Under the pieces are notes generated by a model. The model was not told the origin of the DNA. It ran no database searches and worked only from the letters and a program-made list of their open reading frames with translations. A stretch of 64,000 nucleotides of DNA, from the NCBI RefSeq assembly GCF_030013595.1, contig NZ_CP122768.1. One strand, written 5' to 3'. This DNA is from Escherichia coli. Its GTDB lineage: Bacteria > Pseudomonadota > Gammaproteobacteria > Enterobacterales > Enterobacteriaceae. Made by a program: the position numbers and the translations under genes. This document shows, piece after piece, positions 33,348-64,000 of this stretch; within the stretch, counting starts at the first letter, position 1; every line of letters begins with the position of its first letter.

Positions 33348-34662
33348 TTAATCACCGGCAGCCACGCTGGTCTGTTTACTGTCGTACTTACTGGTGTCCT
33401 GCTGGCTGCTTATCAGCAGGTCGTGGCCCACATCGGCGATAATCCTGTTGCCGTTGACCTGAGCACCGTTCAGTACCGTATCCCGACCACTGTTGATGGT
33501 GACGGTTTTACCGCTGTCTGTTGTGGTTTCAGTCCACTCAGTACCGTTACCTTTCTCGCTGCCTTTTGCCGCATTAACGCTGGCAAAGACGCTGATACCG
33601 GCACCGTTACCACCGGCACCGATACTGACACCCACGCCACCGCCAGCCCCGGTTATCAATGGTGCTGAGGTAGTCACTCCATGAATACGTGTAATCCACC
33701 AGGGTATAGCCATACGGCAGACTGACACCGGCGGCAAAATTCCTCGCATCATGTGACACCGAAAAGTCACTGCTCCGTCCCCCGCTGACAAACCAGTTGT
33801 CAGCCAGCCCCAGAGGATTATTAAAGGAAAGGACACCATTTAACTGCCCCGTACCGGTATTCTTCTGCCCGCTGTTGTCGATGCCCACGCTCCCTGTGAC
33901 TGGCCATTCCGGCAATGCCGTCAGTGTCACCACCGACCATCCCTCACGGTCACCGGGCGATATTTCAATCTGTACCGGTTCCGTACGCAGACGATTAATC
34001 TGCTCCATCCCCTGCTCAATATCCCGCAGGTTCAGAACCTTCCCCTCCATTCCCGGGAAAACCATCTTCAGGGTGCGGGCAGGAAGGTCAGCGCCTTCCG
34101 CCCGGATTTGCTGCAGCCTGCCTTCCATGACCGTTATGTGCAGTACGCCCCCTGAAAGGTCCTGCTCTGTCAGAAAGGCCCGGCTGGTGATATATCCCCG
34201 GCGTATATAGCCGTCCGTCACGGCATCCGTGACCGCAGTCAGGCCGGTGATATTCAGACACTGATTCACCCACGGTGCCACCAGTCTGTCGGTTTCTGCA
34301 GACGTCAGTCGGGTGGCCCCACTGACAACAATGCGTGACACCGTAAAGCAGGGGCCTTCAGTACCGGCAGACGTTTCCGGAGACGGCGTGATAGTCAGCG
34401 GCGCACTGCGCTCCAGCGCATCACGCTGATGCTGGTTTTCATCCAGCAACTGCTGCTGTTGCTGCTGAATTGCACTGCGGTCACCCGGAGACAGCATGGC
34501 TGCCGGAGACGAAAATGCGGGGATAAAAAAACCAGAAAAAACGGAGAGGGAGAGATAGCATATCCACGGAGAGCCACGCCGGAACATATCACAACAGGGG
34601 ACAGACAACGCACGGGATAAAAGGGACGTTTTCGTCAGAATGTTGTTCTGCCGGCGCTGCAT
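33348..34662 (-). pseudogene. two-partner-secretion locus remnant: truncated TpsB (ShlB/FhaC/CdiB-family) transporter plus out-of-frame glycine-rich hemagglutinin-like fragment
   Basis: 351-aa ORF has signal-peptide region, poly-Gln stretch and POTRA-like N-terminal half but ends prematurely; an overlapping 163-aa ORF in another frame is Gly/Thr/Asn-rich like TpsA passenger repeats. Confidence 0.6.
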
Positions 34663-35177
34663 GTTCTCCCCGTATTCTGGCCTGTGTGATGCCAGTGTAA
34701 ATTCATGTCAAAAAGTGTCAGCGAGAAAATTTACACCTGAAAAAGTCTGTCATGAAACAGTTTTATGACAAGACATCAAAAAAATGTCAAAAACGTGATC
34801 TTTCTTCAGCTTTTCAGAATATTGAGTACCAGGAAGTCAATATCAATTCTGGGACACATATGCATTTACCATTAAAACCGGGCACAACAAGCTGTTCAGT
34901 CTCAATCCATACCCCGTGTTTTATCAATATCAGAATAAGAATATCTGCGGATAAATAAAAAAGGAATGTCGAGGGAGCTTACCGCAGAGGGCTCTCCACC
35001 TCACAAACCATTTACAAAAATGATACCGGCATATCTTTGGTCCCTGTCACAACCAGACATTGACAATCCAATATAACCCCAAATATATTTCGGGTAAGAA
35101 GTCTGGGATTTATACAGATATACTGTCTGTTATTACTATTTAATTATATAATTGTATTGCATACATAAGAGGCACTA

Positions 35178-35567
35178 ATGAAACGTTATATAAAATGGTT
35201 TGCCATCACAATTTTTATCAGTATGTTGAGTGCCTGTGCCCGTACGGCCCCAGTGCAACAGATAAGCACCACTGTCAGTGTGGGTCATACTCAGGAGCAG
35301 GTTAAAAATGCCATTTTGAAAGCAGGTGCGCAGCGCAAGTGGATTATGACGCAAGTGTCCCCTGGAGTTATTAAAGCTCGCTATCAAACACGAAATCACG
35401 TTGCAGAGGTTCGTATTACATATACAGCTACCTACTATAACATCAAATATGACAGTAGCCTGAATCTGCAGGCTTCTGATGGAAAAATTCATAAAAACTA
35501 TAACCGCTGGGTGCGTAACCTAGATAAAGATATACAGGTTAACTTATCTACAGGAGCAACGTTATAG
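35178..35567 (+). CDS. apeA: small lipoprotein, first gene of the APE-type cluster
   Basis: 129 aa with lipobox ISMLSAC; sits 64 bp upstream of the methyltransferase gene; symbol assigned by gene order in the published ape nomenclature. Confidence 0.6.
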   Translation: MKRYIKWFAITIFISMLSACARTAPVQQISTTVSVGHTQEQVKNAILKAGAQRKWIMTQVSPGVIKARYQTRNHVAEVRITYTATYYNIKYDSSLNLQASDGKIHKNYNRWVRNLDKDIQVNLSTGATL

Positions 35568-35631
35568 TGATGCTGATATCGGGCTGGAATGGCCCGATAG
35601 TATTTAACTTTCTCTATAAGAATGGTTATAT

Positions 35632-36690
35632 ATGTACGAACAGGACACGCTCAGCGCACTGGATGCCATCACCGAAGCACAGCGGATTGCCTTTGCTCCT
35701 ATGCTTTTCCAGGCAGCTTTGTGCCTGCGCAATGCAGGAATATTAGATTATTTGGATCAACAGGGTAAACAGGGAGCTCCCCTTAATGCGATTACTGAGC
35801 ACACAGTCCTGAATGAATATGCCGTGGGTGTGTTACTGGATATGGGCTTAAGCGGGCGAATTATTACCTGTAAAGAGGGAATTTATTACCTGGCGAAAAT
35901 CGGTCATTACCTCCTGCATGACACTATGACTCGCGTGAATATGGATTTCACCCAGGATGTCTGTTACCAGGGGCTCTTCTTCCTTGCCGATTCACTCAAT
36001 GAAGGAAAACCTTCCGGGTTAAAAGTATTTGGCGACTGGCCGACGATATATCCGGCACTTTCGCAATTACCAGACGCCGCACGTGATAGCTGGTTTGCGT
36101 TTGATCATTACTATTCAGATGGCGCATTTAACGCCGCACTGCCTTATGTATTCGCCAACAACCCCACAACCTTGTACGATGTGGGTGGCAATACGGGTAA
36201 GTGGGCTTTGCGCTGCTGCAAATTCAATGAAAACATCGCCGTTACGTTATTAGATCTGCCACAACAAATCGTACTGGCGAAAGAAAATATCGCGAATGCA
36301 GGTTTTTCTGATCGCATAGATTTCCATGCGGTGGATATGCTAAGCGATGCCCCATTACCAGGCGAGGCTGATATCTGGTGGATGAGCCAATTTTTAGACT
36401 GTTTTTCACCCGAACAAATAATTAGCATACTCAGCAAAATTGCCAGCGTAATGAAGCCTGGCGCAAAACTTTGCATCATGGAGTTGTTCTGGGATGCACA
36501 GCGGTTTGAAGCGACATCGTTTAGCCTGAATGCATCCTCACTTTATTTTACCTGCATGGCAAACGGTAACAGCCGTTTCTATAGTGCAGAGAAATTTTAC
36601 GACTATCTGAATAAAGCAGGATTCCAGGTAGCAGAGTGTCACGATAATTTAGGCGTTGGGCATACACTTTTGATATGCCAAAAGAAATAA
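35632..36690 (+). CDS. apeB: class I SAM-dependent O-methyltransferase
   Basis: 352 aa; motif I LYDVGGNTGKWAL and overall plant-type O-MT-like length with N-terminal dimerisation region. Confidence 0.75.
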   Translation: MYEQDTLSALDAITEAQRIAFAPMLFQAALCLRNAGILDYLDQQGKQGAPLNAITEHTVLNEYAVGVLLDMGLSGRIITCKEGIYYLAKIGHYLLHDTMTRVNMDFTQDVCYQGLFFLADSLNEGKPSGLKVFGDWPTIYPALSQLPDAARDSWFAFDHYYSDGAFNAALPYVFANNPTTLYDVGGNTGKWALRCCKFNENIAVTLLDLPQQIVLAKENIANAGFSDRIDFHAVDMLSDAPLPGEADIWWMSQFLDCFSPEQIISILSKIASVMKPGAKLCIMELFWDAQRFEATSFSLNASSLYFTCMANGNSRFYSAEKFYDYLNKAGFQVAECHDNLGVGHTLLICQKK

Positions 36691-36730
36691 TCGTCACTTA
36701 ATAATTTTGGTTTACCGCGGGCGCGCGTTG

Positions 36731-37453
36731 ATGAAATTTGCATTAAATATTACCAACTGGCAGGCACTGGCGCCTGGACTTAGCGATGTGCAGCAATGGC
36801 AAGCATGGTCGCGCCAGCCGTGGGCGATTGACCCTGCCGCGCCGTTGGCAAAATTAAGTGAACTGCCAATGATGACCGCTCGTCGTCTCAGTTCAGGCAG
36901 CAAACTGGCTGTTGAATGCGGTCTGACAATGCTACGCCGCCATCAGCCAGACGCTGTTTTGTATACCAGTCGTCATGGCGAACTGGAGCGCAATTACCGC
37001 ATTGTTCATGCACTGGCAACCGAACAGGCGCTTTCTCCGACGGACTTCGCGCTTTCCGTACACAACTCTTCCGTGGGTAACCTGACCATTGTGGCCAAAC
37101 AGCCGATCGTTTCGTCATCGCTTTCGGCTGGTCGCGACAGTTTCCAGCAAGGTTTGTGTGAAGTGCTTAGCCTGCTACAAGCGGGATACCAGCGCGTGTT
37201 GATGGTCGATTTTGATGGCTTTCTACCTGAGTTTTATCACCCGCAACTGCCCGCAGAAATGCCTACCTGGCCGTACGCCGTCGCGCTGGTGATTGAAGCT
37301 GGCGATGACTGGCAATGTGAAACGCAGCCAGCCATTGCGGTAAATGAAACAACACTGCCGCAAAGCATCTTGTTTTTACAGCACTATTTACAAAATGCAG
37401 ATGCTTTTTCACTGCCTGGCGAGCGCGTGCAATGGCGCTGGAGCCGCAGATGA
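36731..37453 (+). CDS. apeC: ketosynthase-like protein lacking active-site Cys (chain-length-factor candidate)
   Basis: 241 aa KS N-terminal-like fold without the ACSSS Cys motif or HGT/GHT histidines; start set at MKFALNITNW. Confidence 0.65.
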   Translation: MKFALNITNWQALAPGLSDVQQWQAWSRQPWAIDPAAPLAKLSELPMMTARRLSSGSKLAVECGLTMLRRHQPDAVLYTSRHGELERNYRIVHALATEQALSPTDFALSVHNSSVGNLTIVAKQPIVSSSLSAGRDSFQQGLCEVLSLLQAGYQRVLMVDFDGFLPEFYHPQLPAEMPTWPYAVALVIEAGDDWQCETQPAIAVNETTLPQSILFLQHYLQNADAFSLPGERVQWRWSRR

Positions 37454-38271
37454 GTAAGCTGATGTCGCGCCTGGGATGGGCATGGCGACTGGTCATGACC
37501 GGGTTATGTTTTGTCCTGTTTGGTCTCGGCGGCCTGCTGCTTTCAGTCGTGTGGTTTAACATATTGTTAGTTTTGGTGTGGGATACTTCCCGCCGCCGTC
37601 GTTTGGCACGTCGCAGCATTGCCGCCAGTTTTCGCCTGTTTTTAACTGTCGCGAAAGGGCTTGGCGTGCTGGATTATCGTATTGATGGCGCTGAAATTTT
37701 ACGTCAGGAACGCGGTTGCCTCGTCGTAGCCAATCATCCCACGCTGATCGATTACGTGCTGCTGGCATCAGTCATGCCAGAAACTGACTGCCTGGTGAAA
37801 AGCGCGCTGTTAAAAAATCCTTTTCTTGGCGGCGTCGTGCGAGCGGCAGATTATTTAATCAACAGCGAAGCAGAAACCCTGTTACCCCGCTGCCAACAGC
37901 GACTGGCACAGGGTGACACTATCCTGATTTTCCCCGAAGGCACACGAACGAAGCCCGGTGAAAAAATGACGTTACAGCGCGGTGCAGCGAATATTGCCGT
38001 GCGCTGCACCAGCGATTTACGCATCGTGACGATCGGCTGTAGCGAGCATCTGCTGGATAAACAAAGTAAGTGGTATGACGTCCCGCCTGCCAGGCCGTTT
38101 TTTACGGTTGAAGTCCGTGGGCGGGTAGAAATCAATAAATTTTACGATGCAACTTCACAAGAGCCGACGCTGGCTGCAAGACAGTTAAACCGGCATCTTT
38201 TGCTTCAATTACAGCAAGGTTGTTTACCTCTATCAGGAATAAATAATGCAAGCGCTTTATCTGGAAATTAA
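37450..38271 (+). CDS. apeD: PlsC-family lysophospholipid acyltransferase
   Basis: HX4D motif (ANHPTLIDY) and FPEGTR motif; N-terminal TM segment; ATGA overlap with apeC stop. Confidence 0.75.
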   Translation: MSKLMSRLGWAWRLVMTGLCFVLFGLGGLLLSVVWFNILLVLVWDTSRRRRLARRSIAASFRLFLTVAKGLGVLDYRIDGAEILRQERGCLVVANHPTLIDYVLLASVMPETDCLVKSALLKNPFLGGVVRAADYLINSEAETLLPRCQQRLAQGDTILIFPEGTRTKPGEKMTLQRGAANIAVRCTSDLRIVTIGCSEHLLDKQSKWYDVPPARPFFTVEVRGRVEINKFYDATSQEPTLAARQLNRHLLLQLQQGCLPLSGINNASALSGN

Positions 38272-38503
38272 AAACCTCATCATCAGCACCCTCAATCTGG
38301 ACGACTTGACTCCTGATGATATTGATATCAATGCGCCACTGTTTGGCGACGGTTTAGGGCTGGACTCTATCGATGCACTGGAACTGGGACTGGCAGTAAA
38401 AAATGAGTACGGCATCGTGCTCTCTGCGGAAAGCGAAGAAATGCGTCAGCACTTTTTCTCCGTCGCCACTCTGGCCTCTTTCATTGCTGCGCAACGTGCC
38501 TGA
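38246..38503 (+). CDS. apeE: acyl carrier protein
   Basis: 85 aa with phosphopantetheine attachment motif LGLDSIDALEL. Confidence 0.8.
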   Translation: MQALYLEIKNLIISTLNLDDLTPDDIDINAPLFGDGLGLDSIDALELGLAVKNEYGIVLSAESEEMRQHFFSVATLASFIAAQRA

Positions 38504-38514
38504 GGAAAACCATC

Positions 38515-38766
38515 ATGACAGACCAACAAACCATTTATCAGGAAGTCTCAGCCCTGCTGGTTAAGCTGTTTGAAATCGATCCGCAGGACATCAAACCTGA
38601 AGCGCGACTGTACGAAGATCTGGAACTGGACAGCATCGACGCCGTTGACATGATTGTGCACCTGCAAAAGAAAACCGGTAAGAAAATCAAGCCGGAAGAG
38701 TTTAAAGCAGTGCGTACAGTCCAGGATGTTGTCGAGGCTGTAGAACGCCTGCTACAAGAAGGCTAA
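38515..38766 (+). CDS. apeF: acyl carrier protein (second copy)
   Basis: 83 aa with LELDSIDAVDM motif. Confidence 0.8.
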   Translation: MTDQQTIYQEVSALLVKLFEIDPQDIKPEARLYEDLELDSIDAVDMIVHLQKKTGKKIKPEEFKAVRTVQDVVEAVERLLQEG

Positions 38767-38770
38767 TTTG

Positions 38771-39352
38771 ATGTCGGGCATTCGCTCGCTACCGATGATT
38801 AAGTTGCTGACCGGATTATTGCTGCTCGTCTGGCCTTTTTTAATCTGGCTAGGTTTGGTGCATAACAGCCTGCACTGGCTGTTGCCGCTGATGGCGCTGT
38901 TGCTTTTATTGCGCCTGCGCCAGCCCCGTCGCCAGACGGGGCCGCTCCAGGTCGTCACAAAAATCGTTGCTGTTGTGGGCATTGTATTGTGTGTCTCCAG
39001 TTTTCTGTTGAAAACGTACCAGTTACTGCTGTTTTACCCGGTAGTGGTTAACGCAGTCATGCTGGCGGTTTTTGGCGGTTCGCTGCGGTCGACAATGCCG
39101 ATAGTTGAGCGGCTGGCACGTTTGCAGGAGCCAGACCTCCCGGAAAAGGCCGTGCGATATACCCGCCGCGTAACGCAGGTCTGGTGCCTGTTTTTTATTT
39201 TCAATGGCAGTATTGCGTTATTTACCACCTTGTATGGCAACATGCCCTTGTGGACAGCCTGGAACGGTATCATTGCTTACCTTCTGATAGGTTTCCTGAC
39301 TGCAGGGGAATGGCTGATACGTCGTAAGATGATCAAACGGAAAACACCATGA
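38771..39352 (+). CDS. apeG: integral membrane protein (COG4648-like)
   Basis: Four or more hydrophobic segments; ATG at 38771 preferred over the TTG at 38768 used by the ORF track. Confidence 0.6.
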   Translation: MSGIRSLPMIKLLTGLLLLVWPFLIWLGLVHNSLHWLLPLMALLLLLRLRQPRRQTGPLQVVTKIVAVVGIVLCVSSFLLKTYQLLLFYPVVVNAVMLAVFGGSLRSTMPIVERLARLQEPDLPEKAVRYTRRVTQVWCLFFIFNGSIALFTTLYGNMPLWTAWNGIIAYLLIGFLTAGEWLIRRKMIKRKTP

Positions 39353-40707
39353 ATCAGACTCTCTCACTTTCACAGTGGTTGACAGCCTCTCGCCCTGTAA
39401 CAACTCCTGTTGCCTGGCTTGGGGAATATACCTGGACACTGGGGCATCTGCGGCATGATGTAGCGCTTTTGATCGACCATTTACGCGACCAGCCAGGCAA
39501 TCGCTGGGCACTTTGTTTTGAAAACAGCTATCTTTTTATTGTAGCGTTGTTGGCCACGCTACACTCAGGTAAAATCCCGGTAATCCCGGGCCATAATCGC
39601 GCCGCTTTGTTAAATGTACAACGCTCTTTGTTTGATTGCGTCCTGAGTGATAAAAGGCTGGGCTGGAACGGTCCACAGTTTGTTGTAAGCACATCTCACC
39701 AGATGACGACCAGCACGATAGCCTTTGATGATATTGCTTCTGACGCGTTTATTGAACTTTTCACATCGGGTTCAACCGGACAACCAAAACAAATTGCAAA
39801 ACCTGTTATCAGCCTTGATCAAGAAGCAAACATGCTGGCAACTCACTTTGCAGACCGACTACTGGGCTGTCGTTTTGTAGCATCCGTGATGCCTCAGCAC
39901 CTGTATGGGCTAACTTTCCGTATTTTTTTACCCATGGCACTTGGCCTGCCATTGCATGCCGCAATGCTCTGGTATTCTGAGCAACTTGCCGCATTAAGCC
40001 ATACCTACCGCTATGCCTTTGTCAGCAGCCCGGCGTTCCTTAAGCGACTCGACCTTCATCTGACGCCTCCCCCAGTGGAAATGATTCTCTCTGCCGGCGG
40101 TATGCTACCATGGCAGGATGTAGAGAAAACTTCCACCTGGCTGAATATATGGCCCGATGAAATCTATGGTAGTACCGAAACAGGTATTCTCGCATGGCGT
40201 TACCGTCAACAGGATAATATCCCCTGGTTTACTTTTTCTGATGTTCATCTTTCACAGGAAAGTGAGGGGGTTCGTGTCTTTTCGCCACTAATCCCTGCTG
40301 AAGGATTGGTGCTTGACGATATGTTGCAATTCAATGAAAACGGTCAGTTCCACCTGATCGGACGACGTGGTCGAGTGGTAAAAATAGAGGAGAAGCGGAT
40401 ATCACTGGTTGAAATCGAACAACGACTTCTGGCACTTGACGGTATTATGGATGTCGCTGCAATACCATTAATACGCAATGGCCGCCAGGCTATCGGTGTC
40501 GTGGTTGTACCAAATAAAGAGGCCCGTCAAATATGGCAATGCTCCGGAGGGAAAACTCTGGAGTTGTCCTGGCGCAAAGCACTATTACCATGGCTTGAAC
40601 CTGTTGCAGTACCTCGTTACTGGCGCATTATTGATGAAATACCAGTAAACAGTATGAACAAGCGTGTCTATGCGCAATTACAGGAGTTATTTCATGATAC
40701 GCCATGA
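39349..40707 (+). CDS. apeH: adenylate-forming acyl/aryl-ACP (or CoA) ligase
   Basis: 452 aa with AMP-binding core motifs TSGSTGQPK and YGSTETG; ATGA overlap with apeG. Confidence 0.8.
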   Translation: MNQTLSLSQWLTASRPVTTPVAWLGEYTWTLGHLRHDVALLIDHLRDQPGNRWALCFENSYLFIVALLATLHSGKIPVIPGHNRAALLNVQRSLFDCVLSDKRLGWNGPQFVVSTSHQMTTSTIAFDDIASDAFIELFTSGSTGQPKQIAKPVISLDQEANMLATHFADRLLGCRFVASVMPQHLYGLTFRIFLPMALGLPLHAAMLWYSEQLAALSHTYRYAFVSSPAFLKRLDLHLTPPPVEMILSAGGMLPWQDVEKTSTWLNIWPDEIYGSTETGILAWRYRQQDNIPWFTFSDVHLSQESEGVRVFSPLIPAEGLVLDDMLQFNENGQFHLIGRRGRVVKIEEKRISLVEIEQRLLALDGIMDVAAIPLIRNGRQAIGVVVVPNKEARQIWQCSGGKTLELSWRKALLPWLEPVAVPRYWRIIDEIPVNSMNKRVYAQLQELFHDTP

Positions 40708-41047
40708 AATTGAGCGCCATCTGGTTCAACCGCAGGAGATGGAAATCGTTCTATACCTTGACCCGATGCTCTACTGGTTTAATGGTCATTTTGCCGTACA
40801 GCCTCTGTTACCAGGCGTGGCCCAGTTGGACTGGGTAATGCATTATGCTACCACGCTGCTTGCTCCGGGCTGGCGTTTTCGTAGTATCCAGAATGTTAAA
40901 TTTCTGGCGCCACTTATACCTGAGACGACTGTTACCCTGCAATTAACATGGCAGGAAACAAGTCAGGTACTCACTTTCTGCTATCAGCGTCACGACGGTG
41001 ACGCCCGCCACACCGCCAGTAGCGGGAAGATCCGTCTATGTCGGTAA
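40694..41047 (+). CDS. apeI: hotdog-fold 3-hydroxyacyl-ACP dehydratase
   Basis: About 117 aa FabA/FabZ-like size; start set at MIRHEIER overlapping apeH end. Confidence 0.6.
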   Translation: MIRHEIERHLVQPQEMEIVLYLDPMLYWFNGHFAVQPLLPGVAQLDWVMHYATTLLAPGWRFRSIQNVKFLAPLIPETTVTLQLTWQETSQVLTFCYQRHDGDARHTASSGKIRLCR

Positions 41048-42714
41048 ACTTTTCTCCCTGCGTGTTGATCCCCTGCTACAACCACGGCGCGATGATGCCG
41101 GGCGTGCTGGCGCGTCTTAAGCCATTTAATCTGCCCTGTATTGTGGTGGATGACGGCAGCGATGCCGCCACGCAACAGCAACTGGATAATCTGGTTAGCG
41201 AACAGCCTGGCGTGACCTTAATTCGCCTGGCAGAAAACGCAGGTAAAGGCGCAGCGGTGATGCGTGGCTTGCAGGCAGCGGCAGACGCAGGGTTCAGCCA
41301 TGCGGTGCAGGTGGATGCTGACGGTCAACATGCGATTGAAGATATCCCCAAACTGCTGGCACTCGCTGAACAACACCCTGTGGCGCTGATCTCCGGTCAG
41401 CCAATTTACGATGACTCCATTCCCCGCTCACGGCTGTACGGGCGCTGGGTCACCCACGTCTGGGTATGGATCGAAACGCTCTCCCTGCAACTGAAAGACA
41501 GCATGTGCGGTTTTCGCGTTTATCCGGTTGCGCCGACGCTGCAACTGGCAAAACGCGCCACCATCGGCAAGCGGATGGATTTCGACACCGAAGTGATGGT
41601 GCGCCTCTACTGGCAGGGAAATACCAGCTATTTCGTGCCGACCCGCGTCACCTATCCACTGGACGGGCTTTCGCATTTTGATGCCCTGAAAGATAACGTC
41701 CGCATCTCGCTCATGCACACGCGTCTGTTTTTCGGCATGTTGCCGCGTATTCCTTCACTGCTGATGTGCCACTCTTCCAGCCACTGGGCGCGGCAGAGTG
41801 AAGTTAAAGGGTTATGGGGAATGCGCCTGATGCTGCTGGTCTGGCGTCTGCTGGGAAGAACGGCGTTTACCGCGCTGCTTTACCCGGTGGTTGGCGTCTA
41901 CTGGCTCACCGCTGCTCGTGCGCGTAAAGCGTCGCAAGACTGGCTCGCCCGTGTGCGCCAACAACAACCACAGGCAGCAAAAATCAACAGCTATCAGCAC
42001 TTTCTACGTTTCGGCAACGCCATGCTCGACAAAATCGCCAGCTGGCGCGGCGAGCTGCAACTCGGGCGTGATGTGCTGTTTGCGCCAGGCGCAGAAGCGG
42101 CGCTTGACGTCCGCGATCCGCGCGGCAAATTGCTGCTGGCCTCACATCTTGGCGATGTGGAAGTGTGCCGGGCGCTGGCAAAAATTGAGGGCTACAAAAC
42201 CATTAACGCGCTGGTGTTTAGCGAAAACGCCCAACGCTTTAAACAGATAATGCAGGAGATGGCTCCCCAGGCAGGCATTAACCTGATGCCGGTAACAGAT
42301 ATCGGCCCGGAAACCGCCATCCTGCTGAAAGAGAAGCTGGATAACGGCGAATGGGTGGCGATTGTCGGTGACCGCATCGCCGTCACCCCGCAACGCGGCG
42401 GCGACTGGCGCGTCTGCTGGAGTCCGTTTATGGGCCAGCCTGCGCCCTTCCCACAGGGGCCGTTTATTCTCGCCTCTATTTTGCGCTGCCCGGTGAATCT
42501 GATTTTCGCCCTACGCCAGCACGGCAAGCTGCATATTCACTGCGAAACCTTTGCCGACCCGCTGCTGTTGCCGCGTGGCGAACGCCAACAGGCGCTGCAA
42601 AACGCTATCGACCACTACGCCGCGCGTCTGGAACATTACGCGCTCCAGTCGCCCCTCGACTGGTTTAATTTTTTCGATTTCTGGCAACTGCCGGAAATTC
42701 AGGACAAGGAGTAA
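41038..42714 (+). CDS. apeJ: bifunctional GT2 glycosyltransferase / LpxL-like lipid A-type acyltransferase fusion
   Basis: N-terminal family-2 GT features (CVLIPCYNHG, VVDDGSD, VDADGQH) followed by a C-terminal half resembling HtrB/MsbB late acyltransferases. Confidence 0.7.
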   Translation: MSVNFSPCVLIPCYNHGAMMPGVLARLKPFNLPCIVVDDGSDAATQQQLDNLVSEQPGVTLIRLAENAGKGAAVMRGLQAAADAGFSHAVQVDADGQHAIEDIPKLLALAEQHPVALISGQPIYDDSIPRSRLYGRWVTHVWVWIETLSLQLKDSMCGFRVYPVAPTLQLAKRATIGKRMDFDTEVMVRLYWQGNTSYFVPTRVTYPLDGLSHFDALKDNVRISLMHTRLFFGMLPRIPSLLMCHSSSHWARQSEVKGLWGMRLMLLVWRLLGRTAFTALLYPVVGVYWLTAARARKASQDWLARVRQQQPQAAKINSYQHFLRFGNAMLDKIASWRGELQLGRDVLFAPGAEAALDVRDPRGKLLLASHLGDVEVCRALAKIEGYKTINALVFSENAQRFKQIMQEMAPQAGINLMPVTDIGPETAILLKEKLDNGEWVAIVGDRIAVTPQRGGDWRVCWSPFMGQPAPFPQGPFILASILRCPVNLIFALRQHGKLHIHCETFADPLLLPRGERQQALQNAIDHYAARLEHYALQSPLDWFNFFDFWQLPEIQDKE

Positions 42715-42717
42715 AGG

Positions 42718-43140
42718 GTGCTTAACGATCCCCGATTTACCGCTGAAGTCGAGCTGACCATTCCCTTTCACGACGTCGATATGATGGGCGTGGCCTGGCA
42801 CGGTAACTATTTTCGCTACTTTGAAGTGGCCCGCGAGGCGCTGCTCAACCAGTTCAATTACGGCTATCGGCAGATGAAAGAGTCCGGTTATTTGTGGCCA
42901 GTGGTCGATGCGCGGGTGAAATATCGCCACGCCCTCACCTTTGAGCAACGCATCCGCGTGCGTGCGCATATCGAAGAGTTCGAAAACCGTCTGCGGATTG
43001 GCTATCAGATTTTCGATGCCGAAACGGGCAAACGCGCCACCACCGGATACACCATTCAGGTCGCAGTCGACGAGCAAAGCCGCGAACTGTGCTTTGTCAG
43101 CCCCGATATTCTGTTTGAACGCATGGGAGTCAAACCATGA
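42718..43140 (+). CDS. apeK: 4HBT/YbgC-type hotdog thioesterase
   Basis: 140 aa, GTG start; conserved N-terminal HDVD...GVAWHGNYFRYFE region typical of 4-hydroxybenzoyl-CoA thioesterase family. Confidence 0.75.
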   Translation: MLNDPRFTAEVELTIPFHDVDMMGVAWHGNYFRYFEVAREALLNQFNYGYRQMKESGYLWPVVDARVKYRHALTFEQRIRVRAHIEEFENRLRIGYQIFDAETGKRATTGYTIQVAVDEQSRELCFVSPDILFERMGVKP

Positions 43141-43742
43141 AATTTTTACCGCTGCTGGCGCTGCTGATTAGCCCGTTTGTGAGCGCCCTGACCCGGGACG
43201 ATCTTCAGCAACGCTTTACCGAACAACCGGTGATCCGCGCCCATTTCGATCAAACCCGGACGATTAAAGATCTGCCGCAGCCGCTGCGATCTCAGGGTCA
43301 GATGTTGATCGCCCGCGACCAGGGGTTATTGTGGGATCAAACCTCACCGTTCCCCATGCAACTATTACTGGACGATAAACGCATGGTGCAGGTGATCAAC
43401 GGTCAGCCGCCGCAAATCATCACGGCAGAAAACAACCCACAGATGTTCCAGTTTAACCACCTGCTGCGCGCGCTGTTCCAGGCCGATCGCAAAGTGCTGG
43501 AACAAAACTTCCGCGTCGAATTTGCCGACAAAGGCGAAGGCCGCTGGACGCTGCGCCTGACGCCGACCACCACGCCGCTGGACAAAATTTTCAACACCAT
43601 CGATCTCGCCGGGCAAACCTATCTGGAGAGCATTCAGCTTAATGATAAACAGGGCGATCGCACCGATATCGCTCTTACCCAACATCAACTGACACCAGCG
43701 CAACTGACCGATGACGAACGCCAACGCTTTGCCACCCAGTAA
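43137..43742 (+). CDS. apeL: LolA-like outer-membrane lipoprotein carrier protein
   Basis: 201 aa with signal peptide MKFLPLLALLISPFVSA; size and composition of LolA/LolB fold. Confidence 0.65.
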   Translation: MKFLPLLALLISPFVSALTRDDLQQRFTEQPVIRAHFDQTRTIKDLPQPLRSQGQMLIARDQGLLWDQTSPFPMQLLLDDKRMVQVINGQPPQIITAENNPQMFQFNHLLRALFQADRKVLEQNFRVEFADKGEGRWTLRLTPTTTPLDKIFNTIDLAGQTYLESIQLNDKQGDRTDIALTQHQLTPAQLTDDERQRFATQ

Positions 43743-46029
43743 ACGCCCCGCGCTGTTATGGGGGCTAGTCTGCCTGGTCATGGCGGCGGCGTTGCTGATC
43801 CTGCTGCCACAATCACGACTGAACAGTAGCGTGCTGGCTATGTTACCCAAACAGGCGATGGGCGATATTCCTCCGGCGCTGAATGACGGCTTTATGCAGC
43901 GTCTGGACCGCCAACTGGTGTGGCTGGTCAGCCCCGGTAAAGAGGCTAATCCCAGGGTGGCTCAGGAGTGGCTGACGCTGCTGCAAAAATCCGCTGCGCT
44001 CGGCGACATTAAAGGGCCAATGGATGCCGCCAGCCAGCAGGCGTGGGGAGCGTTTTTCTGGCAGCACCGCAACGGCCTGATTGACCCCGACACCCGCGCC
44101 CGCCTGCAAAATGGCGGCGAAGCGCAGGCGAAGTGGATCCTCTCCCAGCTTTATTCTGCGTTCTCCGGGGTAAGCGGCAAGGAGCTGCAAAACGATCCGC
44201 TGATGTTAATGCGCGGCTCGCAGCTGGCGATGGCGAAAAATGGCCAGCGTTTACGACTAATGGACGGCTGGCTGGTGACGCAGGATCCCCAGGGCAATTA
44301 CTGGTATCTGCTGCACGGCGAACTGGCGGGATCGTCGTTTGATATGCAGCAAACCCACCAGCTCATCACGACCCTGAATACGCTGGAAAAGGCTCTGAAA
44401 ACGCGTTACCCGCAGGCGCAGTTGCTCTCACGCGGCACGGTGTTTTACAGCGATTACGCCAGCCAACAGGCGAAGCAGGATATCTCCACCCTGGGCGTGG
44501 CAACGCTGCTGGGGGTGATATTGCTGATTGTGGCGGTGTTCCGCTCTTTGCGCCCGTTGCTGCTTTGCGTGATTTCCATCGGCATCGGCGCGCTGGCGGG
44601 AACGGCCGCCACATTGTTGATTTTCGGTGAATTACACCTGATGACGCTGGTGATGAGCATGAGCGTTATCGGCATTTCCGCTGACTACACGCTCTATTAT
44701 CTCACCGAGCGGATGGTGCACGGCAACGACGTTTCGCCGTGGCAAAGCCTGGCGAAAGTACGCAATGCCCTGCTGCTGGCGCTGCTCACAACCGTGGCGG
44801 CATATCTGATTATGATGCTCGCCCCCTTCCCCGGCATTCGCCAGATGGCGATTTTTGCCGCCGTCGGGTTGAGCGCCTCTTGTCTGACCGTCCTGTTCTG
44901 GCATCCGTGGCTGTGCCGTGGTCTGCCGGTGCGCCCGGTTCCGGCGATGGCGCTGATGCTACGCTGGCTGGCAGCGTGGCGGCGCAATAAAAAACTGTCG
45001 CGGGGTCTGCCCGTTGCGCTGGCGCTGTTTTCGCTGGCGGGGATGTCAATGCTGCGCGTCGATGACGATATCTCGCAGTTACAGGCGCTGCCGCAGCACA
45101 TTCTGGCGCAGGAGAAAGCCATTACCGCCCTGACCGGACAAAGCGTCGATCAAAAATGGTTTGTAGTTTACGGCGACTCCCCACAGCAAACATTGCGGCG
45201 ACTGGAGAAATATACCGCCTCACTTGAGTATGCGAAAAAAGAGGGGCTTATCAGCAACTACCGCACTATTCCGCTGAACTCCCTGGCGCGGCAGGAGGAA
45301 GACTTAGACCTGCTGAAAACGGCTGCCCCGACGGTAACAAAAGCACTGCAAAATGCAGGGCTGACGGCGGTGAAACCAGATCTCAACGCCATGCCGGTGA
45401 AGGTCGATGAATGGCTGGCAAGCCCCGCCAGTGAAGGCTGGCGTCTGCTGTGGCTGACGCTGGAAAACGGCGAAAGCGGTGTACTGGTGCCGGTTGAAGG
45501 GGTTAAAAGTAGCGCATTGTTGCAGGAAATCGCCAGCTATTACCCTTGCGGCATTGCCTGGGTTGATCGCAAAAGCTCCTTTGATGAATTGTTCGCACTT
45601 TACCGCTACGTCTTAACCGGCTTGTTGCTGGTGGCGCTGGCAGTGATTGCCTGCGGCGCAGTGGCCCGTCTCGGCTGGCGCAAAGGGCTTATCAGCCTGG
45701 TGCCTTCGGTGCTTTCGCTGGGCTGTGGTCTGGCGGTGCTGGCGATGAGCGGGCAGGCGGTGAATCTCTTTTCGCTGCTGGCGCTGGTGCTGGTGCTTGG
45801 CATCGGTATCAACTACACGCTGTTTTTCAGTAATCCGCGCGGTACACCGTTAACTTCGCTACTGGCGATCGCGCTGGCAATGCTCACCACCTTGCTGACG
45901 CTGGGAATGCTGGTATTCAGCGCCACCCAGGCCATCAGCAGTTTTGGCATTGTGCTGGTGAGCGGTATTTTCACCGCCTTCCTGCTTTCGCCGCTGGCTA
46001 TGCCCGATAAAAAGAGAACAAAAAAATGA
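43711..46029 (+). CDS. apeM: MMPL/RND-superfamily membrane exporter
   Basis: 772 aa with two hydrophobic TM bundles separated by soluble domains; start uncertain (ATG at 43711 or TTG at 43729). Confidence 0.75.
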   Translation: MTNANALPPSKRPALLWGLVCLVMAAALLILLPQSRLNSSVLAMLPKQAMGDIPPALNDGFMQRLDRQLVWLVSPGKEANPRVAQEWLTLLQKSAALGDIKGPMDAASQQAWGAFFWQHRNGLIDPDTRARLQNGGEAQAKWILSQLYSAFSGVSGKELQNDPLMLMRGSQLAMAKNGQRLRLMDGWLVTQDPQGNYWYLLHGELAGSSFDMQQTHQLITTLNTLEKALKTRYPQAQLLSRGTVFYSDYASQQAKQDISTLGVATLLGVILLIVAVFRSLRPLLLCVISIGIGALAGTAATLLIFGELHLMTLVMSMSVIGISADYTLYYLTERMVHGNDVSPWQSLAKVRNALLLALLTTVAAYLIMMLAPFPGIRQMAIFAAVGLSASCLTVLFWHPWLCRGLPVRPVPAMALMLRWLAAWRRNKKLSRGLPVALALFSLAGMSMLRVDDDISQLQALPQHILAQEKAITALTGQSVDQKWFVVYGDSPQQTLRRLEKYTASLEYAKKEGLISNYRTIPLNSLARQEEDLDLLKTAAPTVTKALQNAGLTAVKPDLNAMPVKVDEWLASPASEGWRLLWLTLENGESGVLVPVEGVKSSALLQEIASYYPCGIAWVDRKSSFDELFALYRYVLTGLLLVALAVIACGAVARLGWRKGLISLVPSVLSLGCGLAVLAMSGQAVNLFSLLALVLVLGIGINYTLFFSNPRGTPLTSLLAIALAMLTTLLTLGMLVFSATQAISSFGIVLVSGIFTAFLLSPLAMPDKKRTKK

Positions 46030-46610
46030 TCAAATCCACATTCTGGCGAGCGTTCGCCCTGACCGCTACGCTTATCCTCACCGGCTGTAGCCACTCGCAA
46101 CCAGAACAGGAAGGCCGCCCGCAGGCGTGGCTGCAACCTGGCACGCGCATCACGCTGCCGGCACCAGGGATTTCACCCGCAGTCAATTCGCAGCAACTGT
46201 TGACCGGCAGCTTCAACGGCAAAACCCAGTCGCTGTTAGTGATGCTTAACGCCGACGATCAGAAAATCACCCTTGCCGGGCTGTCGTCGGTCGGCATTCG
46301 CCTGTTTCTGGTGACCTACGATGCGCAAGGGCTACGCGCCGAGCAATCCATCGTCGTCCCACAGTTACCGCCCGCAAGTCAGGTACTGGCTGACGTGATG
46401 CTCAGCCACTGGCCGATTAGCGCCTGGGAGGCGCAACTTCCCGCAGGATGGACACTTCGCGACAACGGTGACAAACGCGAGCTGCGTAACGCCAGCGGCA
46501 AACTGGTCACGGAAATCACCTATCTGAATCGCCAGGGAAAACGCGTGCCAATCAGAATTGAGCAGCATGTCTTTAAATACCACATCACCATTCAATACTT
46601 AGGTGAATGA
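46026..46610 (+). CDS. apeN: DUF3261-type lipoprotein
   Basis: 194 aa, lipobox LTGCSHS; ATGA overlap with apeM. Confidence 0.6.
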   Translation: MIKSTFWRAFALTATLILTGCSHSQPEQEGRPQAWLQPGTRITLPAPGISPAVNSQQLLTGSFNGKTQSLLVMLNADDQKITLAGLSSVGIRLFLVTYDAQGLRAEQSIVVPQLPPASQVLADVMLSHWPISAWEAQLPAGWTLRDNGDKRELRNASGKLVTEITYLNRQGKRVPIRIEQHVFKYHITIQYLGE

Positions 46611-46611
46611 T

Positions 46612-47781
46612 ATGATTTATATTTCCGCCGTCGGCATGATCAACGCCCTGGGAAATAACCTTGACGAAATCGCAGCCAACCTGGCTCGCGGTGTCGCCCC
46701 CGGCATGCGCCCACGCGCAGGCTGGTTGCAGGGGCATCCGCAGGCGGTCCTGGCTGGCGTGGATGGCGAGCTTCCGCTTATCCCGGAAAAATTCGCTGCG
46801 CATCGCTCGCGCAACAATCAGATCCTGCTGGCGGCGCTGGCGCAGCTCCAGCCGCAGGTTGATGACGCTATCGCGAAATATGGCTGCGAGCGCATCGCGA
46901 TTGTGCTTGGCACCAGCACCTCCGGCCTGCATGAAGGCGACACGCACGTTAACCTGCACACCCACGGGCAGCCGAGCACCACGTGGCACTATGCACAACA
47001 AGAACTCGGCGATCCGTCGCGTTTTCTCAGCCACTGGCTGGCGCTCGACGGCCCGGCTTATACCCTTTCAACCGCCTGCTCCTCCAGTGCCAGAGCAATG
47101 ATCAGCGGGCGCAGGCTTATCGAAGCGGGGCTGGTCGATGCCGCCATTGTGGGTGGCGCAGACACCCTGAGCCGAATGCCGATTAACGGTTTTCACAGCC
47201 TCGAATCGCTCTCGCCAACCTTATGTCAGCCGTTTAGTCGTGACCGCGCAGGTATCACCATTGGTGAAGGGGCGGGGCTAATGCTGCTGACCCGGGAACC
47301 GCAGCCCATCGCGTTGCTGGGCGTTGGTGAATCGAGCGACGCTTACCATATTTCAGCCCCGCATCCGCAGGGCGAAGGAGCGATCCGCGCTATTAATCAG
47401 GCGCTGACCGATGCGCAGCTTACGCCGGATGACGTCGGCTATATCAACCTGCACGGCACCGCCACACAGCTCAACGACCAGATTGAATCAATGGTGGTTA
47501 ACGCCCTGTTTGGCGAACGCGTACCGTGCAGCTCCACCAAACATTTGACCGGACACACGCTCGGCGCGGCTGGCATTACCGAGGCGGCAATTAGTATGTT
47601 GATTTTACAGCGTGATTTACCGCTGCCCGCTCAGGACTTCAGCCTGTCGCCGCGCGATCCCACGCTGCCACCGTGTGGCATTATCGAAAAACCGCAGCCG
47701 CTGGCACGTCCGGTGATCCTGTCCAATTCCTTCGCCTTTGGCGGCAATAACGCCAGCATTCTGCTCGGGAGGGTTTCGTGA
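46612..47781 (+). CDS. apeO: beta-ketoacyl-ACP synthase (KS)
   Basis: Active-site motif STACSSSARAM plus LHGTATQ and GHTLGAAG histidines; start set at MIYISAVG (ORF track starts at GTG 46603). Confidence 0.85.
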   Translation: MIYISAVGMINALGNNLDEIAANLARGVAPGMRPRAGWLQGHPQAVLAGVDGELPLIPEKFAAHRSRNNQILLAALAQLQPQVDDAIAKYGCERIAIVLGTSTSGLHEGDTHVNLHTHGQPSTTWHYAQQELGDPSRFLSHWLALDGPAYTLSTACSSSARAMISGRRLIEAGLVDAAIVGGADTLSRMPINGFHSLESLSPTLCQPFSRDRAGITIGEGAGLMLLTREPQPIALLGVGESSDAYHISAPHPQGEGAIRAINQALTDAQLTPDDVGYINLHGTATQLNDQIESMVVNALFGERVPCSSTKHLTGHTLGAAGITEAAISMLILQRDLPLPAQDFSLSPRDPTLPPCGIIEKPQPLARPVILSNSFAFGGNNASILLGRVS

Positions 47782-48242
47782 GCCACTATTTATCCCCCGG
47801 CGCTTATCTGCCCCACGACGCGCCCATGTTACTGCTGGAAGACGTGGTGAGCGTCAGCGATGACAGCGCGGTGTGCCGCGTGACGGTTTCGCCCAGTGGC
47901 GTACTGGCACCGTTTCTCGACCCGGACGGCAATCTCCCTGGCTGGTTTGCCCTTGAACTGATGGCGCAAACCGTCGGCGTCTGGTCTGGCTGGCATCGCC
48001 ACCAGCAGGGCAAAAACAGTATTGAGTTAGGGATGATACTGGGCGCGCGTGAATTGCTTTGCACCACTGGCATTCTGCCCGCAGGCCAGACGCTGACCAT
48101 TACCGTCAAACTGCTGATGCAGGACGATCGCTTCGGCAGCTTTGAGTGCAGCATCAACGACGGCGAGGCGACGGGCCGCATTAACACCTTCCAGCCGACC
48201 GCGGAAGAACTTACCACCCTGTTTCAACAAGGAGCGTCCTGA
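47778..48242 (+). CDS. apeP: hotdog-fold 3-hydroxyacyl-ACP dehydratase
   Basis: 154 aa FabA-like; GTGA overlap with apeO stop. Confidence 0.65.
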   Translation: MSHYLSPGAYLPHDAPMLLLEDVVSVSDDSAVCRVTVSPSGVLAPFLDPDGNLPGWFALELMAQTVGVWSGWHRHQQGKNSIELGMILGARELLCTTGILPAGQTLTITVKLLMQDDRFGSFECSINDGEATGRINTFQPTAEELTTLFQQGAS

Positions 48243-48973
48243 TGAGTCGTTCAGTTCTGGTTACTGGTGCCAGCAAAGGCATTGGTCGCGCCATCGCCTG
48301 CAAGCTTGCGGCAGACGGCTTTAACATTGGCGTTCACTATCACCGTGACGCCACAGGCGCTCAGGAAACGCTGAATGCCATTGTCGCCAACGGGGGTAAC
48401 GGGCGTTTGCTCAGTTTCGACGTCGCAAACCGCGAACAGTGTCGGGAAGTGCTGGAGCATGAGATCGCGCAACACGGTGCCTGGTACGGCGTGGTCAGTA
48501 ACGCCGGGATCGCCCGCGATGCCGCTTTTCCGGCTTTAAGCGATGACGACTGGGATGCGGTGATCCACACCAACCTCGACAGTTTCTACAACGTCATTCA
48601 GCCGTGCATTATGCCAATGATCGGCGCGCGCCAGGGTGGGCGCATCATCACGCTGTCCTCGGTTTCCGGCGTAATGGGCAATCGCGGCCAGGTGAATTAC
48701 AGCGCAGCCAAAGCCGGAATTATCGGCGCAACAAAAGCACTGGCTATCGAACTCGCAAAGCGCAAAATCACCGTCAATTGCATCGCGCCAGGGCTTATTG
48801 ATACCGGGATGATCGAAATGGAAGAAAGCGCTCTGAAAGAGGCAATGTCGATGATCCCCATGAAACGTATGGGCCAGGCGGAAGAAGTTGCCGGGCTTGC
48901 CAGTTATTTAATGTCTGATATTGCGGGTTACGTCACCCGCCAGGTTATTTCCATCAACGGAGGGATGTTATGA
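48242..48973 (+). CDS. apeQ: SDR-family 3-oxoacyl-ACP reductase (FabG-like)
   Basis: Rossmann motif VTGASKGIGRAIA and catalytic YSAAK. Confidence 0.85.
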   Translation: MSRSVLVTGASKGIGRAIACKLAADGFNIGVHYHRDATGAQETLNAIVANGGNGRLLSFDVANREQCREVLEHEIAQHGAWYGVVSNAGIARDAAFPALSDDDWDAVIHTNLDSFYNVIQPCIMPMIGARQGGRIITLSSVSGVMGNRGQVNYSAAKAGIIGATKALAIELAKRKITVNCIAPGLIDTGMIEMEESALKEAMSMIPMKRMGQAEEVAGLASYLMSDIAGYVTRQVISINGGML

Positions 48974-50199
48974 CACGTCGCGTAGTGATTACAGGAATGG
49001 GCGGCGTGACTGCCTTTGGTGAAAACTGGCAGGACGTTTCTGCACGCTTACTGGCGTATGAAAATGCGGTGCGCAAAATGCCGGAGTGGCAGGTCTACGA
49101 TGGGCTGCACACCCTGCTTGGCGCGCCTGTTGATGATTTCACGCTACCGGAGCACTACACCCGCAAGCGTATCCGTGCGATGGGCCGCGTGTCGCAAATG
49201 TCGACCCGTGCCAGCGAGCTGGCGTTAGAGCAGGCAGGGTTGATTGGCGATCCGATATTAACCAGCGGCGAAACGGGCATTGCGTACGGTTCATCGACCG
49301 GCAGTACCGGTCCGGTGAGCGAATTTGCCACCATGCTGACTGAAAAGCACACGAACAACATCACTGGCACCACCTATGTGCAGATGATGCCGCACACCAC
49401 CGCTGTTAATACTGGCCTCTTTTTCGGCCTGCGCGGGCGGGTGATCCCAACCTCCAGCGCCTGTACCTCCGGCAGCCAGGCGATCGGTTATGCGTGGGAA
49501 GCCATTCGCCACGGTTATCAAACGGTGATGGTTGCCGGTGGTGCCGAAGAGTTATGCCCTTCAGAAGCAGCAGTGTTTGATACCCTTTTTGCCACCAGCC
49601 AGCACAATGATGCGCCGAAAACCACACCTTCACCGTTCGATGAAAACCGCGACGGACTGGTGATTGGTGAAGGCGCAGGTACGCTCATTCTCGAAGAACT
49701 GGAGCATGCCAAAGCGCGCGGCGCGACCATTTACGGTGAAATCGTCGGCTTTGCGACGAACTGCGACGCGGCACATATTACCCAGCCGCAGCGCGAAACC
49801 ATGCAGTATTGTATGGAGCAATCGCTGAAAATCGCAGGGTTAAGCGCACAAGATATCGGCTATATTTCAGCGCATGGTACGGCGACCGATCGCGGTGATA
49901 TGGCAGAAAGTCTGGCGACAGCAACCATTTACGGTGATAATGTGCCGCTCTCCTCGCTGAAAAGTTATTTTGGTCATACGCTTGGTGCCTGTGGCGCGCT
50001 CGAAGCCTGGATGAGTCTGCAAATGATGCGCGAAGGTTGGTTTGCGCCTACGCTAAACCTGAATAAACCAGACCCGAATTGTGGCGCGCTGGATTACATC
50101 ATGCATGAAGCCCGCAGGGTTGATTGTGAGTTTTTGCAGAGTAACAACTTTGCCTTTGGCGGCATTAATACATCCATCATTATTAAGCGCTGGCCCTGA
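48970..50199 (+). CDS. apeR: beta-ketoacyl-ACP synthase (FabB/FabF-like)
   Basis: 409 aa with TSSACTSGSQAIG active-site Cys, AHGTATD and GHTLGACG histidines; ATGA overlap with apeQ. Confidence 0.85.
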   Translation: MTRRVVITGMGGVTAFGENWQDVSARLLAYENAVRKMPEWQVYDGLHTLLGAPVDDFTLPEHYTRKRIRAMGRVSQMSTRASELALEQAGLIGDPILTSGETGIAYGSSTGSTGPVSEFATMLTEKHTNNITGTTYVQMMPHTTAVNTGLFFGLRGRVIPTSSACTSGSQAIGYAWEAIRHGYQTVMVAGGAEELCPSEAAVFDTLFATSQHNDAPKTTPSPFDENRDGLVIGEGAGTLILEELEHAKARGATIYGEIVGFATNCDAAHITQPQRETMQYCMEQSLKIAGLSAQDIGYISAHGTATDRGDMAESLATATIYGDNVPLSSLKSYFGHTLGACGALEAWMSLQMMREGWFAPTLNLNKPDPNCGALDYIMHEARRVDCEFLQSNNFAFGGINTSIIIKRWP

Positions 50200-51038: not shown

Positions 51039-52070
51039 TCATGTACTCTGACGTAATTCTATCTGGTAGTTGAATTGCACGATACGCGACTCTTCTGATT
51101 CATCATGATTATTATTCAATAGTCCAATCAGTAACTTACCTGTCTCTATCCCCATTTTTTTGTAGTCAATACGGATGGATGTCAAAGTTGGGTGTGTTTG
51201 ATCGCAATTGTCTGAACCGTCAAGACAAGCTACAGCGATATTTCCAGGGATTTTTAACAAACGCCGCTGGCACTCAAACATTATACCCAGCGCAATCTCT
51301 TCGTGGCTGCAAATCACAGCATCCAGCTCTGGTTGTCGCAGTAATATCTCGTTTAATGCGTAACGCCCCAATTGCAGACTTGCGGCATCCGGCATGGTGA
51401 TAACAAGATCAGTGTTCTGGTAATGGCTCAGCATTGCTTTATGCCAGCCGTTCAGTTGCTGACGTTGCAGGCGGTTGTCCATATGCGCACCGATAAATCC
51501 GATATTCTTATAACCCTGCTCCAGCAGATGTTCGGTCAGTTTATGTGATGCTTCAAAAAATGCTGTTTCGATGGTAATTTGAGCCGGACTGAAAGGGGAA
51601 CCGATAACGTTAATGGTAGGTATATTTGTTTTCTCGAGTATCTGGTGAGTTTTATCAGCCAACTGAGAACCAAAAATAACTAACGCCGCCGGGTTGCCTT
51701 GAAGAAGCGTCATCAGAATTTCAGCTTCTTTGAGCTGATTATACTCATGACACCCAAGCAGTAGCTGGAATTCATTTTTATTAAGCACCTGCTGTAATGA
51801 CTGCATAAAGCGGGAGCTGGCTTTATCTGTCAGGGAAGGAACCAGTACGGCGACTGTATGACTGTGACCAGATGCAAGGGCGCCAGCAGTTCTGTTGGGA
51901 ATATAACCCAACTCTTCTACGGCCTGTTCTATCTTTTCCCTCAGCTTGTCAGAAACCTGTTCCGGTGTTCTCAGCGCGCGGGAAACGGTCATAGTTCCGA
52001 CACCTGCAAAGTTAGCGACCTCCTGCAGCGTCACCCGTCCGGTACCACGGCGCTTACGTGTTTTTTCCAT
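51039..52070 (-). CDS. LacI-family transcriptional regulator
   Basis: N-terminal HTH VTLQEVANFAGVGTMTVSRAL and periplasmic-binding-protein-like effector domain; divergent from the PTS genes. Confidence 0.85.
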   Translation of the reverse strand: MEKTRKRRGTGRVTLQEVANFAGVGTMTVSRALRTPEQVSDKLREKIEQAVEELGYIPNRTAGALASGHSHTVAVLVPSLTDKASSRFMQSLQQVLNKNEFQLLLGCHEYNQLKEAEILMTLLQGNPAALVIFGSQLADKTHQILEKTNIPTINVIGSPFSPAQITIETAFFEASHKLTEHLLEQGYKNIGFIGAHMDNRLQRQQLNGWHKAMLSHYQNTDLVITMPDAASLQLGRYALNEILLRQPELDAVICSHEEIALGIMFECQRRLLKIPGNIAVACLDGSDNCDQTHPTLTSIRIDYKKMGIETGKLLIGLLNNNHDESEESRIVQFNYQIELRQST

Positions 52071-52784: not shown

Positions 52785-52799
52785 TCCAGAGGAACATTT

Positions 52800-53087: not shown

Positions 53088-53099
53088 GCTGGGGGCGAT

Positions 53100-63996: not shown

Positions 63997-64000
63997 CTCA

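Follow-up and report, generated by a model that had tools for sequence, protein, structure and literature searches.

The 515 bp of DNA upstream of apeA constitute a composite intergenic control region flanked by a decayed cdiB gene and the aryl-polyene (APE) operon, which point away from each other. In the account that we favor, with a probability of about 0.6, the operon would be transcribed from its own promoter within this region, starting at about position 35096, and would be subject to host-wide control of the H-NS type. As a divergent promoter region, this DNA is ordinary and conforms to the pattern of its family. The core point, the absence of a dedicated regulator in the APE family, has already been published (Claesen lab). 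What our analysis adds is a predicted promoter and start, a conserved core of roughly 100 bp that contains a palindrome, the dismissal of a 68-aa open reading frame (ORF) and the assignment of the left end of the region to cdiB. APE clusters are among the most widespread Gram-negative biosynthetic gene clusters, and what turns them on is acknowledged to be an open question.

The intergenic region separates a cdiB fragment from the ape operon

Coordinates refer to the window, the whole 64-kb stretch of DNA that was analysed. The region and its two neighbors are:

34663..35177, no strand assigned: divergent intergenic region, 37.1% GC; the CFT073 counterpart is also 515 bp long and carries 2 substitutions
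33607..34662, minus strand: cdiB 5' fragment, a pseudogene (ShlB/FhaC/HecB TpsB transporter, contact-dependent inhibition locus), from Pfam
35178..50199, plus strand: apeA-apeR, 18-gene aryl-polyene biosynthesis and export operon, from Pfam and gene order

The cdiB-type ORF starts at 34662 on the minus strand and apeA at 35178, leaving exactly 515 bp between them. This stretch is non-coding and has a GC content of 37.1% compared to 51.2% for the window; no other divergent gap in the annotated part of the window is as long. The AT content amounts to 62.9% in the 515 bp, 55.5% in apeA-apeB and 48.8% in the window. The initial annotation was accurate in describing a 515-bp AT-rich non-coding stretch before apeA, but the term leader does not suit it: the predicted transcript of apeA includes no more than about 82 nt of it, and the cdiB-proximal ~75–140 bp belong to cdiB. 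Since the upstream gene is divergent, the region is bidirectional.

Positions 34300-35700 are 100% identical to the enterotoxigenic (ETEC) strain H10407 and to several other strains, and window 22514-52540 is collinear with H10407 at 99.84%. The counterpart in H10407 is an island at the tRNA-Phe (pheV) gene beside yqgA, with an integrase present. The gene order there is tRNA-Phe, integrase, IS1, fecIRABCDE and the cdiA/cdiB pseudogenes (minus strand), followed by 18 plus-strand genes that run from a small lipoprotein to a beta-ketoacyl-ACP synthase; window 34663-36700 corresponds to about 3,425,261-3,427,300 of NC_017633. Collinearity is confined to 22514-52540, with 1-22513 and 52541-64000 outside it, so the window is not H10407 itself.

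The APE_Ec cluster of CFT073 (c1186-c1204; Cimermancic 2014, Johnston 2021, Markley 2026) shares all 18 genes and their order with the window and lies next to the same divergent cdiB remnant. Its upstream region is identical to that of the window at 513/515 positions and differs only at 34945 and 35007. Because just 2/515 bases differ, expression data from CFT073 apply to this allele. In CFT073 the cluster occupies another part of the chromosome, while the island in the window matches the H10407 tRNA-Phe (pheV) island.

The ape operon contains no regulator gene

The full characteristic APE_Ec gene set is present in the window. Pfam identifies a methyltransferase, a chain-length factor, an acyltransferase, two ACPs, an AMP-ligase, an ApeI-like dehydratase, a GT2, a thioesterase, LolA, MMPL, DUF3261, a KS, an ApeP-like dehydratase, a KR and a further KS; ApeA and ApeG have no Pfam match of any kind. 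Most genes overlap, and non-coding DNA within the operon is limited to two gaps, of 64 and 40 bp. A DNA-binding Pfam domain is found in 0/18 ape products, in agreement with the earlier claim that the cluster includes no pathway-specific regulator. The lack of a cluster-situated regulator has also been described for the APE_Ec family (Markley et al.).

The nearest transcription factor, of the LacI family, is encoded on the opposite strand, 840 bp beyond apeR. Its gene in H10407 is accompanied by a PTS operon and a CRP site that has been mapped. The CRP ChIP-seq table of that strain gives peaks at 3,408,173 and 3,442,697, and none near 3,425,500. The second peak (ETEC_3186, 'ETEC-specific') maps to about 52099 in the window, in the divergent gap between the LacI-family gene (51039-52070, minus strand) and the PTS operon (ORF at 52341-52784, plus strand), which ties this regulator to sugar uptake rather than to APE. 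The downstream PTS genes of H10407 carry IS150 and IS100; the window ORFs are intact (52341-54356).

A predicted promoter is located in the most conserved part of the region

Three features on the apeA side of the region can be distinguished:

35060..35089, plus strand: predicted sigma-70 promoter of the ape operon, with -35 TTGACA (35060-35065), an 18-nt spacer and -10 TATATT (35084-35089), from a consensus scan
34992..35093, plus strand: most conserved block, containing the predicted apeA promoter and about 70 bp upstream, from the allele alignment
35096..35177, plus strand: predicted 5' UTR of about 82 nt, with the start at A35096 or A35097 and the Shine-Dalgarno sequence AAGAGG at 35167-35172

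The sequence TTGACA-18-TATATT agrees with the consensus at 11/12 positions and is the sole site with at least 11/12 on either strand of the 64-kb window. Of 2000 dinucleotide shuffles of the region, 1.1% produce a site of this quality (P=0.011). The predicted promoter lies 118-89 bp before the apeA ATG, on the apeA strand, and combines near-consensus hexamers and a spacer within 16-18 nt with the right strand and position for a sigma-70 promoter. A spacer of 18 nt is one base above the optimum. A C at -13 is typical of RpoS promoters, and the ape -10 region appears, by eye, to have none.

The conservation pattern follows the same outline. Between H10407 and the 92%-identical allele of strain 89-3156, the block 34992-35093 has 3 substitutions in 102 bp, while its flanks differ by 12.6% (ORF region) and by 21.6% including an 11-bp deletion (promoter to ATG). 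Both hexamers and the spacer show 0 differences among the diverged alleles, and positions 35048-35093 are invariant in an alignment of six (H10407, Nissle, M1, A19, 89-3156 and E9). The relevant DNA is narrowed in this way from the full 515 bp to about 100 bp (34992-35095), with the predicted promoter and one palindrome.

Transcription of apeA-apeR most likely begins at about 35096 from the predicted promoter, judging by the sequence. This promoter and start are an addition to the published work on APE_Ec; a literature search gave no usable published map of transcription start sites for strains with this allele. Downstream of the start, AAGAGG sits five bases ahead of the apeA ATG. The predicted 5' UTR is the least conserved part of the region, and the 11-bp deletion within it is found in both 89-3156 and E9. 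Its predicted fold is no stabler than that of shuffled sequences (z=+0.81), and Rfam has no relevant match at E<=1, with a single spurious match to an archaeal snoRNA.

Published data are consistent with host-wide control

In CFT073, ape mRNA levels are higher at 37 than at 23 °C, and overproduction of TosR induces the ape cluster. TosR is a PapB-family protein with a predicted affinity for AT-rich DNA and a predicted antagonism towards H-NS and Lrp. H-NS occupancy follows low GC in the ChIP-seq study of H10407. The ape cluster on plasmid pJC121 works in K-12 from its native promoter(s), with vector read-through as a further possible source of transcription. By qRT-PCR, chronic H2O2 causes a modest rise in apeD and apeO and none in apeB, and acute H2O2 has no effect on ape expression. 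Point mutations in IHF abolish APE production in Frischella perrara.

We infer that apeA-apeR would be transcribed from a strong sigma-70 promoter of its own without a cluster-specific activator, giving a leader of about 82 nt that would have no special structure. The rest of the upstream DNA would consist of the cdiB promoter region (34663 to about 34800) and about 200 bp of ill-conserved AT-rich spacer with a spurious ORF. As such a promoter would need no cluster-encoded activator, host-wide factors would set the output. H-NS-type nucleoid proteins may silence the AT-rich 5' end, comprising the intergenic region and apeA-apeB (about 2 kb, 37-45% GC), and silencing could be relieved by temperature and by H-NS antagonists such as TosR. 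Three observations point to silencing and anti-silencing of this type: the high AT content of the 5' end, the response to temperature and the effect of TosR. The sequence is AT-rich over several hundred bp of horizontally acquired DNA, the base composition associated with H-NS xenogeneic silencing.

Known H-NS-silenced loci (pap, tos and ETEC toxin genes) share an AT-rich control region and a tRNA-linked island with the ape region. The likeness extends to higher ape expression at 37 than at 23 °C and to induction by a PapB-family protein, with the role of H-NS at ape itself being a probable one. Unlike those loci, the ape region has no dedicated anti-silencer gene nearby.

Internal promoters could drive the core genes

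One promoter alone would not account for the flat apeB response to chronic H2O2 while apeD and apeO rise. It is possible, at perhaps less than half the weight that we give to the main account, that promoters inside the cluster, for example before apeB or apeC, drive the core genes, and that the intergenic region controls apeA or apeA-apeB. The authors of the plasmid work likewise wrote of 'native promoter(s)', and a promoter-like site with 9/12 matches is found at 35539-35568, just before apeB. There is also a step in base composition, from 44.5% GC in apeA-apeB (35178-36690) to 55.3% in apeC-apeR (36731-50199), which suggests a separately evolving 5' module and would fit the lack of co-induction of apeB with apeD and apeO. 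Yet the in-cluster sites all have 9/12 matches and occur at the chance rate (12 vs 10.3 +/- 3.3 expected), the gaps between genes are few and short, and the differing mRNA levels could stem from differential stability.

A palindrome overlaps the predicted start

35076..35095, no strand assigned: 20-bp palindrome ACCCCAAATATATTTCGGGT, candidate operator for a dimeric protein, overlapping the -10 and the predicted start

The palindrome has 9/10 pairs, and no other such palindrome is present in the region (P=0.018, shuffles). Its sequence makes it a candidate operator. Through this site, a repressor whose gene lies elsewhere in the genome, dedicated or semi-dedicated, might gate the promoter, for instance a redox or Fe-S sensor such as IscR. 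The position of ACCCCAAATATATTTCGGGT, exactly over the -10 and the predicted start and in the invariant block, is suggestive, the modest native expression from a promoter so close to consensus implies repression, and APE is connected with oxidative stress. We nevertheless consider such a repressor unlikely. AT-rich palindromes occur fairly often around hexamers of the TATA type, one arm base is changed in 89-3156 and E9, and acute H2O2 does not induce the genes. The IscR type-2 pattern matches at chance level (P=0.43), and consensus scans for OxyR, Fur, CRP, FNR, IHF, ArcA, Lrp, Mar/Sox/Rob, RcsAB and LexA give nothing above shuffle expectation in the region. Run with plain consensus strings, IscR type-2 included, the scans are a coarse test. 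The H-NS high-affinity motif TCGATAAATT is absent from the region with up to 2 mismatches allowed. OxyR and H-NS, whose sites the initial annotation had proposed to look for, are thus without a match above chance. Neither the CRP table nor the MarA ChIP-seq study of H10407 lists a peak at the ape upstream region. A separate candidate, the CfaD-activated promoter locus ETEC_3214, was rejected as a different locus, its primers being absent from the window.

A broader combination, in which an unlinked repressor (perhaps a redox or Fe-S sensor) acts at the palindrome and cdiB and ape share bidirectional control in biofilm growth, appears improbable. The repressor would link pigment synthesis to oxidative stress, and the back-to-back arrangement with cdiB would co-regulate contact-dependent inhibition and aryl-polyene production.

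The left end of the region belongs to cdiB

34663..34800, minus strand: cdiB-associated segment (promoter and 5' region), which recurs beside cdiB without APE

The fragment at 33607..34662 has Pfam matches to POTRA_2, POTRA_3 and a truncated ShlB domain, and PGAP labels cdiB in H10407 as 'incomplete, missing C-terminus'. Strain 89-3156 has an intact cdiB-cdiA at the same place. Overall, cdiB is truncated in the window, CFT073 and Nissle and intact in 89-3156, A19 and M1. The annotation, at 34662, probably places the start of cdiB too early, as codon 26 (about 34587) opens a signal-peptide-like stretch, MFRRGSPWICYLSLSVFSGFFIPAFS. If about 34587 is the correct start, the true non-coding gap would be about 590 bp.

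E. coli genomes that lack APE also have the first 73-138 bp of the region next to cdiB, with 92-96% identity. Examples are strain 3R, where the next annotated gene is of the dGTPase family, and strain A39, where cdiBA lies by unrelated genes. Two weak promoter-like pairs of hexamers with 9/12 matches are present on the minus strand (34721-34694 and 34701-34674). Alleles differ by 5.6% in the cdiB-associated segment, as opposed to 12.6% in the middle of the region. On these sequence comparisons, the left ~75-140 bp are best assigned to cdiB. The M1 allele of the intergenic region (1501-2015 of our locus L089) is a mosaic whose left part resembles the diverged 89-3156 allele and whose right part resembles H10407, indicating recombination inside the intergenic region.

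The 5' end of cdiB adjoins this type of APE cluster in 228 of 238-253 genomes (depending on the query), about 90%, and the exceptions are insertion sequence (IS) events. An IS1 is located at about 34849 in CE0026a and another at about 34972 in E9, and ETEC1731 has an IS3-family element at 35104/35105, between the predicted promoter and apeA. The intergenic region is therefore a repeated IS target in other strains. The IS3 element should uncouple the ape operon of ETEC1731 from the predicted promoter, and the natural breakpoints at about 34849, about 34972 and 35104/5 offer a ready-made deletion series.

The initial annotation attributed control to global regulators or to read-in from flanking DNA. 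The first of these would fit the CFT073 data, as set out above. An operon with no effective promoter of its own, relying on read-in, is very improbable because the upstream gene is divergent: IS1 does lie just upstream in the same orientation in some strains, and the IS3 element of ETEC1731 separates apeA from the predicted promoter, but cdiB points away from apeA on the opposite strand here and in about 90% of carriers, a strong and conserved predicted promoter is present, and even the APE type linked to yhhT, described below, has a hairpin and T-run after yhhT (by eye; the terminator scan did not flag it).

The 68-aa ORF is spurious

34752..34958, plus strand: 68-aa ORF, judged non-coding, its frame not being preserved among alleles

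The initial annotation considered this ORF to be of doubtful reality, and the comparison of alleles strengthens that doubt. In 89-3156, a 1-bp deletion at 34880 breaks the frame, and the annotated product there has 105 aa and is unrelated after residue 43. The eight substitutions before this frameshift fall at codon positions 1, 2, 1, 2, 2, 3, 3 and 3; with 3/8 at position 3, there is no third-position bias. In strain A19, the ATG is changed to GTG and indels of +2, +27 and -6 are present. The ORF has no Pfam match, and inspection of the sequence reveals no Shine-Dalgarno ahead of its ATG. Because sister alleles carry frameshifts and indels, we regard the ORF as spurious and not a gene.

It is very improbable that the region acts in cis as an RNA (riboswitch, attenuator or thermometer) or encodes a small regulatory protein: a long non-coding stretch, thermoregulated ape genes and the presence of an ORF would suit either role, but the leader is less conserved than the rest of the region and has an unremarkable fold and no relevant Rfam match, the temperature effect is seen at the mRNA level, and the ORF is disrupted as described.

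The architecture, but not the sequence, is conserved among enterobacterial APE clusters

We gathered 80 apeA loci from other Enterobacterales by alignment of ApeA. The architecture of the upstream DNA is conserved among enterobacterial APE clusters, while its sequence is not: phylogenetic footprinting against the 80 loci detects no upstream homology beyond the ribosome-binding site. The non-coding gap before apeA is mostly 250-700 bp, and in 75-80 of the other loci the 300 bp before apeA have a median GC content of 36%, compared to 55% in the flanking DNA. The length and AT-richness of the region, which the initial annotation pointed out, are thus typical of these clusters. A lower GC content in apeA-apeB than in apeC-apeD is observed in 54/75 loci. 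A promoter match of at least 10/12 is present in 15/83 upstream regions, indicating that the 11/12 match described here is a feature of this island lineage.

Elsewhere, the usual upstream neighbor of apeA is the AI-2E transporter gene yhhT. Other sampled neighbors, none of them regulators, encode a Wzz-type protein, a GNAT acetyltransferase, an AAA kinase and a chain-length factor; two more without a Pfam match appear by eye to be outer-membrane-like and fimbrial-subunit-like. A second APE lineage of E. coli, found in O157:H7 and many other strains, also sits between yhhT and downstream genes.

The yhhT-linked clusters (E. coli O157:H7, Citrobacter, Klebsiella, Enterobacter and others) share several features with the island type. 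They have the same gene order from the ApeA lipoprotein and ApeB methyltransferase onwards, an upstream non-coding stretch that is also long (250-700 bp) and AT-rich (30-40% GC), and, in the sampled loci, no regulator in the upstream flank. Major differences can be observed as well. Their upstream neighbor yhhT is co-directional, whereas cdiB is divergent in the island type; apeA has about 70% DNA identity to the island-type gene, and the upstream regions are unalignable. Their predicted promoters are weaker (9-10/12) and located about 200-230 bp upstream. In Citrobacter and Klebsiella clusters (our loci L007, L014-L018 and L039), TTGATA-17-TATACT is found about 230 bp before apeA, and EDL933 has TTGCCT-17-TATAGT at the aligned place (locus L005, 4750-4778). 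A promoter at about 230 bp would imply a much longer leader in the yhhT-linked than in the island lineage.

The 10-mer TTGGTCCCTG, considered as a site conserved with the O157:H7-type upstream region, was rejected as chance or a vestige (P=0.25, shuffles; absent from other genera). In the EDL933 record (L005, 4944-4958), the annotation places the beginning of apeA at ATGAAATGG (4956). Translation from an ATG that lies in frame 12 nt before this gives MRHYMKW..., which lines up with the island-type ApeA start MKRYIKW, and the annotated start of apeA in EDL933 is probably four codons short.
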